IMG/VR virus record: IMGVR_UViG_2541047712_000002
Reading direction: 5' to 3' (one strand)
Length of the DNA stretch: 64,000 nt
Source: a virus
Lineage: Duplodnaviria > Heunggongvirae > Uroviricota > Caudoviricetes
The position numbers and the translations under genes are program-made. The notes beneath the pieces are model-generated. The model was not told where the DNA came from, searched no databases, and saw nothing but the letters and a program-made list of their open reading frames with translations. Positions 2,096 through 11,241 of the stretch are shown here, piece by piece. The stretch's first letter is position 1. Each line of letters begins with the position of its first letter.

Positions 2096-5000
2096 TTGAA
2101 CATGGAACAGTTCAAGAAGAAAAAGCTACCGCTGTTTATTGCCGGTGCGGGTGGTAAAAAAAGCAGCAAAAGCTCCAGCCGTACACCGGTTGAAGCCGAC
2201 GATACCGTAAATTCTCGTGCAATGGCCGCTATCCTCGATCTTCTTGGGGAAGGGGTAATTGGCGGCTTAGTAAATGGCGCAAGATCTATTTTTATCGACG
2301 ATCTGCCGATTGTAAATGAAGACGGTTCCTCAAACTTCAGCGGAATCACATGGGATTTTCGCGACGGTTCGCAAGACCAGACTCCAATGTCTGGCTTTGA
2401 TTTCGTTGAAACGCCTAAATCCGTCAATATCCAGTTAAAAAAAACACATTATGTAACGGTTTCAATCGATAACGATGAAGCTGATCGGGTTCGTGTCATC
2501 ATGAAGTTTCCTTCTTTGCGAAGCATAGATAAAAAAACTGGTGACACGAACGGTACAACCGTTGAGTACAAGTTCCAGATAGCAAATGGCGACTCAACAT
2601 TTGTAGATGTGGTCGCAGAAGGTGAAAAAAGCGTTGGCATTAAGCTAACTGCAAAGAAGACAGGTGTTTATTACCGTAGCTATGAGCTGAAGCTGCCTAA
2701 GCCTGGACGCGCGTACAAGGTTCGTGTAGTCCGTATTACCGATGATAACAGCAGCCAGTATCTCTATAACGATACATGGGTGGACTCAATAGGTGAGATT
2801 GTAGATACACCGATGAACTACCCAAACTCTGTGCTGGTGGGTCTGAAGGTTAATTCTGAGCAATTTGGTAGCACCATGCCATCTCGTTCGTATTTGGTGC
2901 GTGGATTAAAAATTCGCGTGCCGTCAAACTACAACGAGGCCAGCAACACTTATGATGGTGTATGGGATGGCACTTTTAAGCTGTTGTCTTCATCCAATCC
3001 AGCCTGGATTCTTTTCGACCTGTTAACGAATGAACGATATGGGCTTGGCCAATTTGTATCAGAGTCCATGATTGACCTCGGCCAGCTGTACCAGATCGGT
3101 CGATATTGTGACGAAGAGGTTGATGATGGCTTTGGTGGCAAAGAGAAACGTTTTGCAATCAATACGCAGATTACCAGTCGACAGGACGCATACCGACTAA
3201 TTCAGGATATTGCTGGAGCATTCCGCGGCATGGTGTTTTGGGCTGGTGGGATGGTTAACATCATGCAGGATAGCCCATCAGATCCGGTAATGATGTTTAC
3301 CAACTCTAACGTCAAAGATGGATTGTTTACCTATAAAGGTTCTGCGCGTAAAGATCGCCCATCCGTTGCGCTCGTAACCTACAACAACAAGGAGGACGGT
3401 TATAAGCAAAACATCGAGTACGTTGAAGATCAGGACGCAATGCGCCGTTATGGTGAGCGTAAGACAGAAGTCGTAGCATTTGGCTGTACAAGCCGAGGGC
3501 AGGCTCACCGAGTTGGTTTGTGGCTTTTATATACCGCCAGAATGGAGTCGGATGTAATTACATTTACTGCCGGCTTAGATGCGTCATTCCTGATGCCTGG
3601 TGAAACCGTTCTGATTCAGAACAAATATCGCGCAGGAAAGCGCAACTCCGGTCGAATTGTGGAGTTTACCAAAAACAGCATCACACTCGATGCGCCTGTG
3701 TCATTAGCTAAAAGCGGCAGCTTTATTCGGATATTGAATCAGGAAGGCAAAATCGTTGAACGCGATGTTCTTGAAACTGGCGAAAACATAACAAAGGTTA
3801 CGTTTTCAAAAGCCCTGTCGTCAGCGGAAACGCCTGTTTTGAACGGTGTCTGGACAATTACAGAACCAGATCTCGAACCTATGCGCGTTCGCATCGTTAA
3901 CATCGCGCAGGGGGAAACGCCGGGTAGCTTTGACATCACCGCTGTTGAGAACAATCCGTCTAAATATGAGGCAATCGACAATGGTGCAACGCTGATCCCG
4001 CAGAATACGACGGTATTGGACCCAACTTACTCCAAGCCATCTAATCTGCAAATCACTGAAGGGACTTATCTCTCAAGCCCGGGCAACCTGTCAGTAAAAC
4101 TGACTGCAACATGGGAAGGGAAATCTCCAGAGTATTGGATCAGTTGGCGACGTTCTGATGAAAACAATGTATCGAACTGGCAATCGGCGCGTGTAACCGA
4201 AGAGCAATACGAAATCGTTAATGTCGCGGAGAATGGACGCTACGACTTCCAGCTGTATGCGGTTTCATTCAACGGTAAAAAAACAGAGATTATCAGTACC
4301 GTTTATCAGGTGTTGGGCACAATGACACCGCCGGATTCCCCAACGTCATTAACGGCCGTTGGAGACTATCGTAATGTGATACTGAATTGGGTTAATCCAG
4401 ATTCGGTAGACCTTGATCACATTAATGTTTACGCATCCCAGACCAACAATCTGGATACAGCGAAACTGATCGCAGAGTCTGCAAGCACCACCTTTACACA
4501 TGCTGGTCTTGGGGATAGCGAAACGTGGTATTACTGGGTTCGAGCGTCGAACAAGCGAGGTATGTTAAGTCCTCCGAACTCAAACTTGGGGACAGAGGCG
4601 ACAACTCGCGATGTACTGTCGTTCCTGACAGGCAAAATTACGTCTTCTGAACTTGGCCAAGGTTTACTTGAGGAAATCGACTCAAAAGTATCTCAGGAGG
4701 CGGTGGATTCCATCTATGAACAGATGGATGAAAGTCTGAAAAGCCTTGATGACAAGTTTACAGAGACAGATCGGCGGCTTGAAGAAGCTCAAAACGATCT
4801 TAAAACGGATGTTTCCAGTACTGTAAGCAAGGTGGAAGACGCTCTTAAGGAAGTTGAAAACTCTAACGCTGCTTTAATTCAGTTGCAGGAAACTGTATCA
4901 GAGCAGGGCAAAGCTGTAGCTGGAGCTGTTGAGGCGGCAAATGCAGCACTTGACAATTCATCGGCTTTAATCGCGGAGGAACGTGAAGCACGAGTTGAGG

Positions 5001-6262
5001 GTGACTTGGCAAACGCGAAAGAAATCGAGGCGATGAAGTCAACTGTAGATAGCAGTTTAGCCACCATTGAAGAAATGAAAAAAACCGTGGCTGAAGTTGA
5101 GCGTTCCAGTGCCGAAGTGACAACAAACATTGAAGCATTGGCTAAAACAAACATCGATCTTGCTTTGCGTCAGGATGAAGATCAGCACAAGCAGATGGTG
5201 AGTAATGCGAAGATCACCACAACTCAGAAGGCTTTTGCAGACGATATGTCTGCAATGGCTACGAAAATGGAAGAAATTCGCGCTGAAATAAATGAGGATA
5301 TCAGAGCTTCAATCACTGAAGAAACAACGGCTCGTGTAGATGCTGATAATGCTATTGCAAGCAGAATCACCAAACTTGAATCAAAGATTAACGATGATAT
5401 TTCTGCCGCAATTGTGAGTGAACAAGAGGCACGAGCTAGTGCCGATGAAGCACTTTCAAAAGAAATACTATCGTTACAAGCCAAAATTGAAGGCGATATT
5501 AGTGCAGCTATATCTGAAGAAAAAATTGCCCGAGCAACTGCTGATGAATCTTTAGCACAACAGATAACCACATTGAAGAGCCAGACGGGTAAAGATATTA
5601 AGGCGGCTGTAGCAGAAGAGACGAAAGCCAGAACTGACGCTGATTCGGCTTTGGCTTCTAGTATCACTAATCTACAGGCGCAAACGAGCAAAGATATTAA
5701 TGCCGCGATTACGTCTGAGGCGACTGTGCGCACAAACGCCGACAATGCTCTAAGTGGACGAATTGACACCTTAAAAGCATCAGTTGATGGAAATACAGCG
5801 ACAATTCAAGAGCAGGCAACTGCTATTGCTGATACTAACAAAAAGGTTTCAACCGCGTGGACGTTGAAGATGGAAACGTCAACAAGTGGTGGGCAAAAAT
5901 ATGTCGCAGGTATTGCGCTTGGAATTGACACCACGGGGCTTTCCCAGTTTTTGGTGCAAGCAGATCGATTTGGTCTAGTCAACTCAGTTAACGGAAAGAT
6001 CACCACACCATTTGTTATCGAAAACAGCGTTGCATACATGAATGGTGCGTATATTAAGGATGGTACTATCACAAATGCAAAGGTAGGTGACTTGCAATCA
6101 ACAAACTTCGTAAGCGGACGAGCCGGATGGCGATTTGGTAAAAATGGAACGCTTGAGATCAACGGCAATAGTGGCGGCAATGGGAGATTGGTTATAAATG
6201 GTCAGAGGATTGACGTTTATGATGACAATAATGTCCTTCGAGTGAGGATTGGTCAGCTTTGA
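2096..6262 (+). CDS. central tail fiber / host specificity protein J-like
   Basis: 1388-aa ORF immediately after L-K-I genes; N-terminal region typical of gpJ family; C-terminal third is fibrous with five tandem 33-aa repeats. Confidence 0.7.
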   Translation: MNMEQFKKKKLPLFIAGAGGKKSSKSSSRTPVEADDTVNSRAMAAILDLLGEGVIGGLVNGARSIFIDDLPIVNEDGSSNFSGITWDFRDGSQDQTPMSGFDFVETPKSVNIQLKKTHYVTVSIDNDEADRVRVIMKFPSLRSIDKKTGDTNGTTVEYKFQIANGDSTFVDVVAEGEKSVGIKLTAKKTGVYYRSYELKLPKPGRAYKVRVVRITDDNSSQYLYNDTWVDSIGEIVDTPMNYPNSVLVGLKVNSEQFGSTMPSRSYLVRGLKIRVPSNYNEASNTYDGVWDGTFKLLSSSNPAWILFDLLTNERYGLGQFVSESMIDLGQLYQIGRYCDEEVDDGFGGKEKRFAINTQITSRQDAYRLIQDIAGAFRGMVFWAGGMVNIMQDSPSDPVMMFTNSNVKDGLFTYKGSARKDRPSVALVTYNNKEDGYKQNIEYVEDQDAMRRYGERKTEVVAFGCTSRGQAHRVGLWLLYTARMESDVITFTAGLDASFLMPGETVLIQNKYRAGKRNSGRIVEFTKNSITLDAPVSLAKSGSFIRILNQEGKIVERDVLETGENITKVTFSKALSSAETPVLNGVWTITEPDLEPMRVRIVNIAQGETPGSFDITAVENNPSKYEAIDNGATLIPQNTTVLDPTYSKPSNLQITEGTYLSSPGNLSVKLTATWEGKSPEYWISWRRSDENNVSNWQSARVTEEQYEIVNVAENGRYDFQLYAVSFNGKKTEIISTVYQVLGTMTPPDSPTSLTAVGDYRNVILNWVNPDSVDLDHINVYASQTNNLDTAKLIAESASTTFTHAGLGDSETWYYWVRASNKRGMLSPPNSNLGTEATTRDVLSFLTGKITSSELGQGLLEEIDSKVSQEAVDSIYEQMDESLKSLDDKFTETDRRLEEAQNDLKTDVSSTVSKVEDALKEVENSNAALIQLQETVSEQGKAVAGAVEAANAALDNSSALIAEEREARVEGDLANAKEIEAMKSTVDSSLATIEEMKKTVAEVERSSAEVTTNIEALAKTNIDLALRQDEDQHKQMVSNAKITTTQKAFADDMSAMATKMEEIRAEINEDIRASITEETTARVDADNAIASRITKLESKINDDISAAIVSEQEARASADEALSKEILSLQAKIEGDISAAISEEKIARATADESLAQQITTLKSQTGKDIKAAVAEETKARTDADSALASSITNLQAQTSKDINAAITSEATVRTNADNALSGRIDTLKASVDGNTATIQEQATAIADTNKKVSTAWTLKMETSTSGGQKYVAGIALGIDTTGLSQFLVQADRFGLVNSVNGKITTPFVIENSVAYMNGAYIKDGTITNAKVGDLQSTNFVSGRAGWRFGKNGTLEINGNSGGNGRLVINGQRIDVYDDNNVLRVRIGQL
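5288..5782 (+). repeat. five tandem 99-nt (33-aa) coiled-coil repeats inside the J-like gene
   Basis: protein units INEDIRASITEETTARVDADNAIASRITKLESK / INDDISAAIVSEQEARASADEALSKEILSLQAK / IEGDISAAISEEKIARATADESLAQQITTLKSQ / TGKDIKAAVAEETKARTDADSALASSITNLQAQ / TSKDINAAITSEATVRTNADNALSGRIDTLKAS. Confidence 0.7.
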
Positions 6263-6355: not shown

Positions 6356-8743
6356 ATGTGGTACAGGGAAGGTACAATAAATCTCACTAAAGGAAATAAA
6401 ACTGTAGTGGGAACAGGCACAGCCTGGGGGGTGACGGCGAACGGCGTCCTTCCAGGTATGATATTGATTGGCCCCGATAATAAGTTATATGAAATAAAAT
6501 CAATCGAGAGTGACACTTCGTTAACTCTTGTTGAAGCCTACGGTGGTAGCACCCAAACAAATGTCCCGTGCAGAATAATTACGACCTATGAAGGTGATTT
6601 AACCCAATTTAGTGCTCGTTTTACTGCGCTTATGTCTCGCATGTCAGCCGATTCAAAAATGATGCGTAGTTGGTTGACTGCCGTGGATGAAATAACAATT
6701 GAGCGTGAAGATGGCACGGAATTAACCGTAAAATCCCTTACGCAGATCGTTAATGAGCACAATGAGAACCTAGAATGGTATAAAGAAAATACTCCCATAA
6801 TTAACACCGCTGCACAAAAAGCTAAAGAGGCGGCAGCGAGCGCAACAGCGGCCAAAAAATCAGAAACTAACTCAAAAGCGAGTGAGACAGCTTCAAAGAC
6901 TAGCGAAACTAATGCGAAAAATAGCGAGGTAGCTGCAAAATCGAGTCAGAGTGCTGCCGCAAACTCCGCTACCGCAGCAAAAAACAGCCAGGATGCAGCA
7001 GCCGAAAGCGAGAGTGCTGCAGCTGGTTCTGCGACTTCAGCAGCTGGATCAGCAACTGCTGCGGCTAACAGCCAGAAAGCCGCGAAGACGAGCGAAACTA
7101 ACGCAAAGTCCAGCCAGACGGCAGCGAAGACCAGCGAAACAAATGCCAAAGCCAGCGAAACTGCGGCGAAAAACAGTCAGGATGCAGCAGCCCAAAGCGA
7201 GAGTGCCGCAGCTGGTTCTGCAAGTGCGGCGGCTTCTTCTGCCTCTGCATCAGCCAACAGTCAAAAAGCTGCAAAAACCAGTGAAACCAACGCAAAGGCG
7301 AGCGAGACTGAGGCGGCTAACTCAGCGAAAGCATCGGCAGCAAGCCAGACGGCTGCAAAAGCAAGTGAAGACGCAGCCAGAGAGTATGCAAGCCAGGCTG
7401 CGGAGCCGTATAAACAAGTTTTGCAGCCGCTTCCCGATGTGTGGATACCGTTTAACGATTCACTGGATATGATTACGGGCTTTTCGCCGTCATATAAAAA
7501 GATTGTTATTGGTGATGATGAAATAACGATGCCTGGCGATAAGGTTGTAAAGTTTAAACGCGCATCAACTGCCACATATATCAATAAATCAGGCGTATTT
7601 AGTGTTGCTAAAATTGATGAGCCACGATTTGAAAAAGAAGGTTTATTGATTGAAGGACAGCGCACTAACTATTTTGTTAAATCCAATATCCCCGCTGAAT
7701 GGACGAGTACCAGCAATATCGATAAAACTAATAATGGTGTTGATGAATTTGGTTTTTCATATGCCAAAATGCGAACAAAAGATAATATGACAGGACAATC
7801 ATCTGCACTTAGTCTGCATACATGCAGTGCATCCCGGGGGATTGATGTTAGTGGCGATAATAAGTATTGCACTGTTTCATGCAGGGTTAAAGCTCCTGAT
7901 GGTCTTCGTTGTCGTTTGCGTTTTGAAAAATACGATGGGTCGGTTTATACATTTTTAGGAGATGCTTATTTAACTTTCGGAACTCTGATAATAGAAAAAA
8001 CTGGCGGAGCAGCCAATAGAATAGCAGCTACTGCAACTAAAGATCCGGTTACAGGGTGGATTTTCTATGAGGCAACTATAGAAGCTGTTGAAGGTGAAAC
8101 CTTAATTGGCGCAATGATTCAGTATGCGCCGAAAAAAGGTGGTGTAACTGAAGCGGGAGATTATATTTACCTTGCAACACCACAATTTGAAAACGGCGGA
8201 TGTGCTTCATCTTTTGTTATTACGACAACTGTACCCGCAACCCGCTCCAGTGATATGGTGACGATCCCAACTGAAAATAATATCTATAATAGACCGCTTA
8301 CGTGCCTGGTCGAGGTTAATAGAAATTGGGGCGATATTCCTCCTAATGTAGCACCGCGTATTTTTGATTTTTCTGGTGTGCCACCTATTGAGTCAATTAC
8401 ATACGCTTTTAACACAACTGAGAAATATTACGGTCAGCTTTATATGCAAACTTATAAAGCGTCGACAAGTACTTACGTTTCTAGTGTGTTTGCTGGTCGA
8501 ACTGATGTTCGAAAATTCATTGGTGGTTTTAATATTTATTCTGATGGTACTAAACGAGTAGTTTCTAACGGTGAGGCTACTAAAACCATGAAAACGGAGT
8601 GGACGGGCGTAAAAACACGGACCTTTATTCGAATTGGAGGTCAAGCCACATCGGGAACTCGTCATCTATTCGGCCATTTGAGAAATCTTCGTCTCTGGCA
8701 TAAAGAATTAACTGATGCGCAAATGGGGGAGAGTATTAAATGA
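6356..8743 (+). CDS. tail fiber protein with internal Ala/Ser/Thr-rich repeat region
   Basis: 795-aa ORF downstream of J-like gene; central low-complexity duplicated module (AAKNSQDAAAESESAAAGSA...ANSQKAAKTSETNAK...); globular C-terminal half. Confidence 0.5.
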   Translation: MWYREGTINLTKGNKTVVGTGTAWGVTANGVLPGMILIGPDNKLYEIKSIESDTSLTLVEAYGGSTQTNVPCRIITTYEGDLTQFSARFTALMSRMSADSKMMRSWLTAVDEITIEREDGTELTVKSLTQIVNEHNENLEWYKENTPIINTAAQKAKEAAASATAAKKSETNSKASETASKTSETNAKNSEVAAKSSQSAAANSATAAKNSQDAAAESESAAAGSATSAAGSATAAANSQKAAKTSETNAKSSQTAAKTSETNAKASETAAKNSQDAAAQSESAAAGSASAAASSASASANSQKAAKTSETNAKASETEAANSAKASAASQTAAKASEDAAREYASQAAEPYKQVLQPLPDVWIPFNDSLDMITGFSPSYKKIVIGDDEITMPGDKVVKFKRASTATYINKSGVFSVAKIDEPRFEKEGLLIEGQRTNYFVKSNIPAEWTSTSNIDKTNNGVDEFGFSYAKMRTKDNMTGQSSALSLHTCSASRGIDVSGDNKYCTVSCRVKAPDGLRCRLRFEKYDGSVYTFLGDAYLTFGTLIIEKTGGAANRIAATATKDPVTGWIFYEATIEAVEGETLIGAMIQYAPKKGGVTEAGDYIYLATPQFENGGCASSFVITTTVPATRSSDMVTIPTENNIYNRPLTCLVEVNRNWGDIPPNVAPRIFDFSGVPPIESITYAFNTTEKYYGQLYMQTYKASTSTYVSSVFAGRTDVRKFIGGFNIYSDGTKRVVSNGEATKTMKTEWTGVKTRTFIRIGGQATSGTRHLFGHLRNLRLWHKELTDAQMGESIK
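6814..7390 (+). repeat. duplicated ~180-nt Ala/Ser/Thr-rich module inside tail fiber gene
   Basis: two near-identical copies of ...AAKNSQDAAA(E/Q)SESAAAGSA...SANSQKAAKTSETNAK(S/A)S(Q/E)TAAK... in the translation; the out-of-frame Arg-rich ORF 6951..7472 is a by-product. Confidence 0.6.
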
Positions 8744-9030: not shown

Positions 9031-9735
9031 ATGGCTACATCGACAGTAATTCCAGGAGACATCACCACGTTAAAGGGAGATGTCAGTAAAGCCAAGGAAG
9101 ATATTTCCTCAATTAACGGAAAAGTATCAACGCTTCAGACTGATATGACCAGTGCAAAGCAGGATATCAGCACCAGATACACAAAAACTGAAGTTGATAA
9201 TAAGCTGAAAAACAAAGTGGAAGTGAACGATCTGGAAAGTGGTCGTTATGGTGGAGATTTTTACCCGCTGACTGGTCGTGAAGCGTTTTATTTGTGGGGA
9301 TTGGGCACGACTACAGCGGCGGCAAACCTTTATCTTAATCCTGACCCCGCAATTTCGTCTGTACTGCGGTCCACATCGTCTATCCGCTATAAACATTCAG
9401 TAGAGACGATAGATTCGGAGCACGCCGATCTCATTTTCAAGATGCGCCCTGTGTGGTACAGGTCGCAATGCGAAAATGACAGGCGCGATTGGGGATTCTA
9501 TGGATTGATTGCCGAGGAAGTAGGAGAAATTGCCCCTCAGTTTGTTCACTGGCGAGCAGCTAACGAGAATGATGCTCCTGAAGCTATTTCCAGCAATGGC
9601 CTTGTTGCCGAAGGTGTAATGTACGAACGTCTGGTTGTTCCACTGATTCACCATATCCAGAAGCTGACTGAAAGAGTTGATGAACTTGAGTCAGAATTAA
9701 AGTTGTTATTAACTTCCCGAAGCGATATCGGATAA
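9031..9735 (+). CDS. putative tail fiber-associated protein
   Basis: 234-aa ORF with RBS (gagggagacaa ATG); coiled-coil-like N-terminus; C-terminal region loosely resembles intramolecular chaperone domains of phage fibers (not verified). Confidence 0.3.
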   Translation: MATSTVIPGDITTLKGDVSKAKEDISSINGKVSTLQTDMTSAKQDISTRYTKTEVDNKLKNKVEVNDLESGRYGGDFYPLTGREAFYLWGLGTTTAAANLYLNPDPAISSVLRSTSSIRYKHSVETIDSEHADLIFKMRPVWYRSQCENDRRDWGFYGLIAEEVGEIAPQFVHWRAANENDAPEAISSNGLVAEGVMYERLVVPLIHHIQKLTERVDELESELKLLLTSRSDIG

Positions 9736-10199: not shown

Positions 10200-10535
10200 A
10201 TGGAGGAAAATATGTCGAACGAGATGGCGGGCGTAACAACAGAGCAAGTTGAGCGCATTGCCGCGATCGTTGCTCGGGAGGTTGTCGGCAAATTAGGTAA
10301 AGAGCTACGTGAAGAAATTGGCCAGGAGGTCAACGATCAGCTGAAAACCTACTTTGGTGATATGACCCCGGCGCAACATAGTATTCAACACTCCAACCTG
10401 GACAAACTCCTTAACCGGTTAGATTCCATCTCCAGTGGGTTCTTTGGCGGCATTGTTTCTAAAATAACGTCGTTCATTATTACCGCACTGCTTTTGGGGT
10501 TAGCCGCGTATGGCGTGAAAAATGGACTGCAATAA
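10200..10535 (+). CDS. putative holin-like membrane protein
   Basis: 111-aa ORF with RBS (ggaggaaaat ATG); single C-terminal transmembrane segment (ITSFIITALLLGLAAYGV); directly upstream of lysis-like genes. Confidence 0.3.
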   Translation: MEENMSNEMAGVTTEQVERIAAIVAREVVGKLGKELREEIGQEVNDQLKTYFGDMTPAQHSIQHSNLDKLLNRLDSISSGFFGGIVSKITSFIITALLLGLAAYGVKNGLQ

Positions 10536-11241
10536 CAGGAGATCAAGGATGAAGACTCCGAGAGGCATTCGTAACAATAACCCCGGTAATCTTGATAAAG
10601 GATCGCCGTGGCAAGGTCTGGTTGCTAATCCAGACGAACCCCGCTTTTGCACGTTTAAAGACCCTGTTTGGGGGATTCGTGCGCTGGCGGTGACTCTAAT
10701 TACCTACCACGACAAACGTCGCGCAAAAGACGGCTCAAGTATCGATACCATTCGTGAAGTTATTGAACGCTGGGCACCGCCGAACGAAAATAACACTGAC
10801 GCCTATATTAATGAGGTGTCCAAAGCAGTTGGTGTAACCGCAGACATGATTATCGATCTGCATGATTACGACATCCTTCGACCTTTAGTTGAGGCAATCA
10901 TTCGCCACGAGAATGGCCGAGGCCCGCTAAAAACGCTGAACACCTGGTATGCGGCAGAAGTTATTGAGGAAGGTCTGCGTCGAGCTGGCGTCGTTAAGCC
11001 GGTGAAAACGGTGAAGGCTGTTCCTGTAACGAAAGAAACCGCAGGCGCAACTGTTACAGCAGGTATTGGTCTGGCGCAGCTTGCCGATGTTATGCCGCAG
11101 ATTTCCGCTGCTATGGATAAAGCACAAGGTCATATCTCTAGCGGGGATACAGTACGCATCATCTTCGGTATTGCCACTATTGTTGTGGCAGGATTCATTG
11201 CCTGGTCGCAGGTAAGAAAACACCAGAAAGGGATGGTCTAA
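10522..11241 (+). CDS. putative cell-wall hydrolase / lysis protein with C-terminal membrane anchor
   Basis: 239-aa ORF with RNNNPGNL motif and C-terminal hydrophobic segment (IIFGIATIVVAGFIAWSQV); enzymatic class not determinable by eye. Confidence 0.3.
   Translation: MDCNNRRSRMKTPRGIRNNNPGNLDKGSPWQGLVANPDEPRFCTFKDPVWGIRALAVTLITYHDKRRAKDGSSIDTIREVIERWAPPNENNTDAYINEVSKAVGVTADMIIDLHDYDILRPLVEAIIRHENGRGPLKTLNTWYAAEVIEEGLRRAGVVKPVKTVKAVPVTKETAGATVTAGIGLAQLADVMPQISAAMDKAQGHISSGDTVRIIFGIATIVVAGFIAWSQVRKHQKGMV

Follow-up and report, generated by a model that had tools for sequence, protein, structure and literature searches.

Known Tail Fiber Switches and the J Gene of the Window

How non-contractile tails obtain the energy to breach the cell envelope is a long-standing question, and a very recent answer, predicted to extend to siphophages, is the switch of a coiled coil to a beta-prism in the F-type pyocins. 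By cryo-electron microscopy (cryo-EM), the shaft of the pyocin central fiber is a trimeric coiled coil with side fibers docked on it (PMC13455828; bioRxiv 2026.02.24.707460; PMC12874032). In the F7 pyocin, the 163-residue coiled coil of the central fiber protein (CFP, residues 921-1083) becomes a triangular beta-prism after ejection (He et al. 2026, PMC12874032). The coiled coil is thus described as a metastable spring, i.e., receptor contact converts it to the beta-prism, the tail tip opens, the tape-measure protein is released, and puncture of the envelope is driven (PMC12874032). The switching strands follow the motif SxSxxMxxLxS, in which S denotes small residues at the prism corners, while residues at the M positions, buried in the coil only, are in many cases Asp or Glu with an Arg partner at i+/-4 (PMC12874032). 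Placing Gln at A987, A995, V1010, or A1017 abolished killing and left assembly intact, and 21 of 24 siphophage homologues, phage TLS among them, were predicted to switch (PMC12874032). Here we describe a tandem array of 33-residue units in the central fiber protein J encoded on a 64,000-nucleotide stretch of viral DNA (Caudoviricetes; IMG/VR record IMGVR_UViG_2541047712_000002), hereafter the window, which we trace below to an SSU5-like phage-plasmid. We think it reasonably probable that these units serve as modules of a metastable coiled-coil spring and correspond to the fold-switching segment of the pyocin, with the copy number setting the length of the shaft and probably its stroke.

The array lies within one gene, as follows (positions are those of the window):

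2096..6262, + strand, homologue of the central tail fiber / tip attachment protein J, 1388 amino acids (aa) from a TTG at 2096, the likely true start being the ATG at 2102

Per Pfam searches, this J contains FNIII-A_GpJ at aa 104-238 (E 1.3e-29), Phage-tail_3 at aa 360-523 (1.4e-35), fn3 at aa 647-730 (E 3.2e-5; at 24.5 bits slightly below the Pfam 25-bit cut-off), and Phage_Tail_Tip (DUF1983) at aa 1236-1370 (E 7.2e-42). It is assigned to PHROG 31, ‘central tail fiber J’, and among PDB sequences it retrieved the F2-pyocin fiber (3.9e-156, over the hub) and lambda J (1e-124), with T1 gp33 also matched. Judged by its sequence, the open reading frame (ORF) is a lambda-gpJ-like central fiber protein. 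A first-pass annotation of the window, made from the letters alone, had already named the gene a J-like central fiber, and the Pfam domains agree.

A Tandem Array of 33-Residue Units

The first-pass annotation had also placed five tandem, perfectly phased repeats of 33 residues (99 nt) at 5288-5782, in the distal part of the fiber, and this proved accurate. The ORF 2096-6262 on the + strand is in frame with position 5288, and the 495 nt of the array encode aa 1065-1229 of the 1388 as five 33-residue units without any insertion or deletion (indel). The units, together with a lone degenerate unit further upstream, are

5288..5386, + strand, repeat unit 1, aa 1065-1097, INEDIRASITEETTARVDADNAIASRITKLESK, of terminal type, kept as the first unit among relatives
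5387..5485, + strand, repeat unit 2, aa 1098-1130, INDDISAAIVSEQEARASADEALSKEILSLQAK, of interior type, amplified in arrays of 9-10 units
5486..5584, + strand, repeat unit 3, aa 1131-1163, IEGDISAAISEEKIARATADESLAQQITTLKSQ, with A1154 and S1162 (pyocin A987 and A995)
5585..5683, + strand, repeat unit 4, aa 1164-1196, TGKDIKAAVAEETKARTDADSALASSITNLQAQ, of interior type, duplicated in arrays of 6 units, with A1178 and A1185 (pyocin V1010 and A1017)
5684..5782, + strand, repeat unit 5, aa 1197-1229, TSKDINAAITSEATVRTNADNALSGRIDTLKAS, the most widely conserved, with E1208 and R1212 (pyocin E1039 and R1043)
4961..5041, + strand, lone degenerate unit, aa 956-982, SALIAEEREARVEGDLANAKEIEAMKS = ALIAEEREARVEGDLANAKEIEAMKS

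The BLOSUM62 self-score of the protein at lag 33 is 2.27, which is 22.8 standard deviations (SD) above shuffled sequences (z=22.8; across 2000 shuffles, the highest score at any lag had a mean of 0.12, an SD of 0.095, and a top value of 0.85). Self-similarity at lags 66 and 99 is as high as at lag 33, and none was found at lags 7, 11, and 22, i.e., sequence identity shows no 7- or 11-residue sub-period. The identity at lag 33 is raised only between aa ~1043 and ~1175 and is near zero before ~1010 and after ~1190; because it is confined to that stretch, the boundaries drawn for the array in the first-pass annotation are correct. The second half of unit 5 adjoins the beta domain of the tip.

Between units, pairwise identity is 42-52% in protein and 42-59% in DNA. 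The first-pass annotation had described conserved I-x-x-D-I and A-D-x-A-L positions, and this holds in part: D4-I5 and A19-D20 are present in all five units, whereas I1 is found in three and A22 and L23 in four each. It overlooked E12 and R16, which together with D20 are invariant across 34 aligned units, A7 and L30 being nearly so. When the 111 distinct units of relatives are considered, E12 and R16 are each kept in 100% and D20 in 97%. No Pfam-A model matched the 165-aa array (aa 1065-1229) above threshold, the best having an E of 0.12, far below its gathering score.

The repeat is detectable at the level of the protein and is not a feature of the DNA. Tandem Repeats Finder (TRF) reported no repeat at 5288-5782, and a gap-free DNA repeat finder run on the region returned short matches that resemble chance and no family of 99 nt. 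At lag 99 the DNA is 53% identical overall, the second codon position reaching 70% and the third 36%, and the longest identical in-register run between any two units of the window is 11 nt. These values point to old repeats that selection acting on the protein has preserved, rather than to the product of a recent DNA duplication.

The silence of TRF, along with a 181-aa ORF on the opposite strand, could be taken to mean that there is no real feature here, i.e., that the periodicity arose by chance in a helix rich in Ala, Asp, and Glu, or that the true gene is the minus-strand ORF. We consider this excluded by the z-score, by the presence of the units in register at 93 related loci and across >2000 protein clusters, and by the overwhelming homology of the plus-strand ORF, as opposed to a minus-strand ORF that matches no family. 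The latter (5224-5769, lying wholly within the repeat region) was considered as a gene in its own right and rejected, as nothing rose above the Pfam threshold; it is probably a by-product of repetitive codon usage.

The degenerate unit was recognized by a hidden Markov model (HMM) of the unit (E 1.7e-4). It sits 109 residues upstream of the array, and the same spacing is found in relatives and in two distant J proteins (P0096 and P0108). The conserved stretch between it and the array (TNIDLALRQDEDQH) may be the counterpart of the insertion/kink region of the pyocin shaft.

Correspondence with the F-Type Pyocin Shaft

The F-type pyocin central fibers (F7 CFP, PMC12874032; F2 PyoF10, PDB 25vf, Gu et al. 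2026, PMC13455828; PA0641, Yang et al. 2026, bioRxiv 2026.02.24.707460) belong to the same protein family as the J of the window, and their shaft is likewise placed between FN3 domains and a Phage_Tail_Tip beta domain. The shaft and tip of the F2-pyocin fiber (25vf) aligned to J at aa ~1137-1360 with an E of 1.9e-27. The eight residues named in PMC12874032 have identical letters and numbers in the 25vf sequence, and through a pairwise alignment of 25vf with the J of the window they map as follows:

pyocin A987, J A1154, unit 3 position 24
pyocin A995, J S1162, unit 3 position 32
pyocin V1010, J A1178, unit 4 position 15
pyocin A1017, J A1185, unit 4 position 22
pyocin E1039, J E1208, unit 5 position 12
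pyocin R1043, J R1212, unit 5 position 16
pyocin A998 (control), J G1165, unit 4 position 2
pyocin A1011 (control), J R1179, unit 4 position 16

The four Gln-sensitive pyocin residues thus all face small residues in J, and across the 111 distinct units the positions concerned (15, 22, 24, and 32) are small in 99-100%. The Glu-Arg pair at i+4 is shared as well. A scan with the residue classes stated in PMC12874032 found 13 matches to SxSxxMxxLxS in the 165 aa of the array (7.9 per 100 aa), vs. 0.6-0.9 per 100 aa elsewhere in J, and none of 5000 shuffles reached 13. Each of the five units has the motif in reverse at positions 7-17 and forward at positions 22-32, and a further forward match at positions 15-25 is found in three of the five. 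Even the lengths are close, with 163 residues in the pyocin segment and 165 in the five units here.

The two systems differ in other respects. The window encodes a clean 33-residue tandem array with an invariant E12-R16-D20, and it does so in a replicating phage-plasmid, in contrast to a tailocin; the switch itself has been demonstrated for F7 only. Repeats are not mentioned in the pyocin papers of He et al., Gu et al., or Yang et al., and the word ‘repeat’ is absent from PMC12874032. What is new here is that a segment of the pyocin switch type is built of 33-residue modules, in a natural number that ranges from 3 to 21.

Other known systems resemble the array less closely. In phage T1 gp33 (PDB 9l9p; PMC11945409) and in T1-like TLS, too, a long helical C-terminal extension with 33-residue units of this type comes after a lambda-like tip, although in T1 the duplicated copies lack the E-R-D triad and fewer units are recognizable. 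The C-terminus of T1 gp33, residues 821-1172, is unresolved in the published structure (PMC11945409). Within that part, residues 922-987 of chain 9l9p_S form an exact 33-residue duplication (REVIATETEALSREIDQLKAQIGDDIQASLTDI twice), with the same unit length as in the window. Lambda gpJ (PDB 8iyk, 8xcj) has the hub, FN3, and C-terminal straight-fiber (Phage_Tail_Tip) domains in common with the J of the window, as well as the gene order L-K-I-J, but it has no helical shaft, and J aa 863-1230 are without a lambda counterpart. The opening of the lambda tip involves bending of the beta fiber and no coil-to-prism switch (PMC12874032). Hemagglutinin (HA) is comparable in that a trimeric coiled coil stores conformational energy and a receptor or environmental trigger leads to breach of a membrane without ATP; there is no homology, however, the change is from loop to helix in HA and would be from helix to beta here, and HA has no tandem repeats.

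Predicted Structure of the Shaft

The alignment of J with lambda J covers aa 21-862 and then only aa 1231-1353, so the ~370 residues in between (863-1230) are an insert relative to lambda. This insert contains no proline, is acidic (net charge -10 over the repeats), and carries no Pfam family. The parts that flank the array are

4628..5287, + strand, proximal non-repetitive helical shaft, aa 845-1064, proline-free, net charge -24, without a counterpart in lambda J
5783..6259, + strand, C-terminal beta tip domain, aa 1230-1388, Phage_Tail_Tip, opening with long beta strands

We generated two AlphaFold2 (AF2) models of the monomer. The alignment supplied to AF2 held 86 sequences; the homologue search behind it, with the C-terminal 529 aa, gave mostly truncated or partial proteins shorter than 930 aa, which were used for this alignment and not for unit counts, loci from IMG/VR, GTDB, and INPHARED being counted instead. 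The first model shows an unbroken helix at aa 1002-1220, with a predicted local distance difference test (pLDDT) score of 90-96 across the units, followed by the beta domain. The second, restricted to units 3-5 and the tip, gives the same picture, but in it aa 1220-1230 (positions 24-33 of unit 5) pair as a strand with the first strand of the tip. Residues 1220-1230 thus differ between the models, being helix in the first and strand in the second, the strands beginning at aa ~1220-1233, and in both models the helical segment lies directly N-terminal to the beta strands of the C-terminal domain. The long strands that open the tip domain presumably seed the prism and lie at the end nearest the receptor. 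A Foldseek search of the PDB, in a library without pyocin entries, matched the tip domain alone, to the SU10 tail tip fiber (7z4b) and the lambda gpJ central fiber (8xcj). The extended coiled shaft proposed in the first-pass annotation is thus in keeping both with the long helix predicted by AF2 and with the pyocin homologue, whose trimeric coiled-coil shaft was seen by cryo-EM.

The hydropathy of the array (aa 1065-1229) has a power of 61.6 at a period of 3.67 residues and 0.3 at 3.50, as compared with a periodicity of ~3.55 in the upstream shaft. No canonical heptad (3.5) hydrophobic periodicity was found in aa 1065-1229, and a heptad register is not possible because the period is 33 residues. 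The core positions are likely to be 1, 5, 9, 12, 16, 20, 23, 27, and 30, i.e., nine per 33 residues in a hendecad-like register, and the invariant E12, R16, and D20 fall on these likely core positions. The strongest harmonic of the unit, however, is k=16, with a beta-like period of 2.06, against which the k=9 harmonic (3.67) is also present; 2% of within-unit shuffles reach k=16, and 0.2% match k=16 and k=9 jointly. At unit positions 5-27, the odd residues are hydrophobic or small and the even ones charged.

The confident helix is also what one would expect of a static spacer, in which a stable coiled-coil rod that does not refold holds the receptor-binding tip at a set distance, with the copy number determining the reach (e.g., through O-antigen or capsule). 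This is essentially the view of the first-pass annotation. Whole-unit changes in copy number with constant flanks, described below, suit such a rod as well, as do arrays of 10-21 units, which are far longer than the 163-residue pyocin segment, and the examples of lambda and T5, which are without a large fold switch (PMC12874032). A static rod nevertheless leaves several features without explanation, namely the invariant, buried E12-R16-D20, the 99-100% small residues at the positions of the pyocin prism corners, the strong period-2 amphipathy, and the 9-fold enrichment of the switch motif. We therefore consider it rather unlikely that the array is a spacer only. In treating the shaft as passive, the first-pass annotation likely missed its main function, given that the closest characterized homologue is a metastable fold-switching element whose diagnostic pattern the units carry.

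The acidity of the shaft raises another alternative, in which the repeated surface would act as a rack of iterated docking sites for the N-termini of side tail fibers, the copy number setting how many side fibers are bound, or where. In the F2 and F7 pyocins, three trimeric side fibers attach to the acidic surface of the helical shaft by way of basic residues (PMC13455828; PMC12874032; bioRxiv 2026.02.24.707460), and the window offers both the negative charge (on the array and, more strongly, on the upstream shaft) and a side fiber gene directly after J. Yet docking in the pyocins is confined to one kinked/insertion site rather than spread along a repeat, the side fiber protein here is only weakly basic (+2) over its first 40 residues, and side fiber genes vary widely among relatives with no visible tie to copy number. 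A rack as the main role of the array thus appears improbable to us, though docking could plausibly be compatible with a spring, the two not being exclusive.

A Proposed Spring and Points Against It

If the array is a spring, the three J copies would most likely pack their units into a three-stranded coiled coil, since J is threefold in all solved lambda-like tips. One unit would then make nine helical turns of about 4.9 nm in all (33/9 = 3.67 residues per turn) and five units a rod of ~24 nm, with E12, R16, and D20 forming a buried ladder of charges in the middle of each unit. Each unit bears the S/L/M pattern twice, mirrored, at positions 7-17 and 22-32, which suggests that upon switching it could fold into one beta-hairpin made of a strand at 7-17, a turn at 18-21 (xADx), a strand at 22-32, and a turn at 33-6 (often Q-T-G-x-D). 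The array would thereby collapse from ~24 nm to ~5 nm, pulling the tip towards the envelope and opening it. In-register gain or loss of interior units would change the copy number and with it the length of the shaft, and probably also the stroke and the stored energy.

Several observations weigh against a pyocin-like spring. The AF2 monomers keep units 1-4 helical in both models and predict no beta conformer. The k=9 harmonic taken alone is not significant, 20% of shuffles reaching it. The upstream pyocin units are poorly similar to those of the window, only the last pyocin unit scoring well and being recognizably of this kind, and the pyocin shaft is mostly heptad (Yang et al., bioRxiv 2026.02.24.707460), in contrast to the 3.67 register of the array, which lacks a periodicity of 3.5. 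Reading two strands per unit gives ten strands, vs. the five to six switching strands of He et al. (PMC12874032), and the strand assignment may therefore be wrong in detail. Some inserted segments of 33-40 residues, in phages TLS and Shlf1, were predicted to stay helical (PMC12874032), so not every unit need switch. Finally, the main text of He et al. makes no mention of SSU5 (PMC12874032).

Copy Number Among Relatives

J proteins were taken from 93 related loci (INPHARED, GTDB, and IMG/VR), and their units were counted with an HMM as well as by using the last unit and E...R...D as anchors. Examples of each count are

3 units: L050
4 units: L030
5 units: the window, SSU5, Kluyvera
6 units: L092, Yersinia pestis L009, Photorhabdus
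7 units: L010
9 units: PhiR41_1, L083
10 units: Cyrano, CMS-2020a

The upstream segment is of constant length in all, and a downstream tail of 159 residues is common to most relatives, with some (L030, the Y. pestis locus L009) having a longer one of about 271-277 residues. Single units of 32 residues occur occasionally. When each unit is named after the nearest unit of the window, the arrays read 1-2-5, 1-3-4-5, 1-2-3-4-5, 1-2-3-4-4-5, and 1-3-2-2-(2)-4-x-4-4-5. To judge from these strings, the first and last units are fixed and the interior units are gained and lost. In L083, four adjacent units are ~72% identical in DNA.

The clearest case of a change in number comes from two E. coli phages, PhiR41_1 and CMS-2020a (strain SCU-175), which differ at 17 of 4611 aligned bases and by one clean, in-register gap of 99 nt bounded by an 11-nt microhomology, GCTGCTATTAA. 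With 3 to 10 units among SSU5-like relatives and this one clean indel, the repeat count is not invariant, in line with the first-pass annotation, which had expected it to vary by recombination. That proposed route is supported only in part: within the array of the window there are at most 11 identical in-register bases, ongoing homologous recombination there should be rare, and the single indel on record lies at a microhomology of 11 nt. The tuning of receptor reach or host range by repeat number, also put forward in that annotation, would be hypothetical.

Among the few annotated relatives, no pattern was found between copy number and the length of the side fiber gene, and the Cyrano paper gives no dimensions of the central fiber (PMC9928086). 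In the Klebsiella-type loci (L006, L062-L081, and L088), the N-terminal ~1000 residues of J are the same, followed by a different C-terminal part of >2000-3000 aa with no units.

A profile of the five window units, searched against 1.84 billion representative proteins, retrieved 2038 proteins at E<=1e-3, in which a single protein has at most about 26-30 matches. One of these, the metagenomic J-like protein P0096 (2138 aa), has 21 tandem units of 33/32 residues at aa 1160-1848, between the hub and Phage_Tail_Tip; as a helix, its shaft would be ~100 nm long. Among the top hits (P0097-P0240), the unit core (AAI..E..AR..AD.AL...I..L.A), which no Pfam model covers, stays constant and recurs widely in long fiber-like proteins, but its spacing varies, 32 being the commonest, followed by 36, 33, and 39. 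The search thus flags an uncurated type of repeat with >2000 protein clusters.

This range of copy numbers invites a bolder reading, which we hold to be possible but doubtful: the 33-residue unit could be the quantum of a viral fold-switch spring, nine turns becoming one hairpin, and the 3-21 copies could tune stroke and stored energy to the thickness of the surface layer of the host. Phage-plasmids of the SSU5 type occur commonly in Escherichia, Klebsiella, Yersinia (pMT1-type plasmids), Salmonella, and Enterobacter, and resistance genes are spread by them as well. In their J, the switch segment appears to be present in a modular form of unusual regularity, with copy-number variants that occur naturally. 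If this is true, these elements would provide a convenient genetic system for the operation of the switch in a real phage and for relating the length of the segment to its function, along with a ready-made allelic series for the refolding energy and the travel that a non-contractile tail needs to breach the envelope.

Gene Neighborhood and Origin of the Window

The genes around J follow the lambda-like order L-K-I-J, after which comes a side fiber gene:

15-713, + strand, L (Phage_tail_L)
679-1503, + strand, K (JAB + NlpC/P60)
1491-2084, + strand, I (PHROG 32, tail assembly protein)
6356..8743, + strand, side tail fiber gene, 795 aa, PHROG tail fiber families, directly downstream of J

Over its whole length, the DNA of the J gene is 77.5% identical to that of Salmonella phage SSU5, and its first 2.6 kb are 95-97% identical to the E. 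coli phage-plasmids Cyrano and CMS-2020a. In PLSDB, 487 plasmid records match the gene (Escherichia, Klebsiella, Yersinia, Enterobacter, and Salmonella). Most matches to E. coli SSU5-like phages and plasmids end abruptly at query nt ~2586, which corresponds to window position ~4681 and aa ~862, where the helical shaft begins. The gene thus has a mosaic junction at ~4681, with an N-terminal part 91-97% identical to E. coli records and a shaft and tip that resemble SSU5 at 77%. From this break and the likeness to SSU5, we conclude that the window comes from an SSU5-like phage-plasmid and that the shaft plus tip of J is an exchanged module.

The side tail fiber gene has DNA repeats of its own, a 42-nt tandem repeat at 7069-7170 (2.4 copies, 80% matches) and a 21-nt repeat at 7202-7242, both of which fall in a stretch rich in Ala, Ser, Thr, and Lys (aa ~161-240). 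Further downstream, an ORF at 9031-9735 (+ strand, 234 aa) corresponds only to the final ~235 residues of the 1385-position fiber family phrog_3299 and includes an intramolecular chaperone domain, Peptidase_S74. The ORF has the appearance of a fiber-tip cassette, orphan or alternative, downstream of the side fiber gene; a second, short ‘side tail fiber’ coding sequence is present in PhiR41_1, too. A few genes downstream of the fiber genes, the ORF 10522-11241 (+ strand, 239 aa) matches endolysin and transglycosylase PHROG families.

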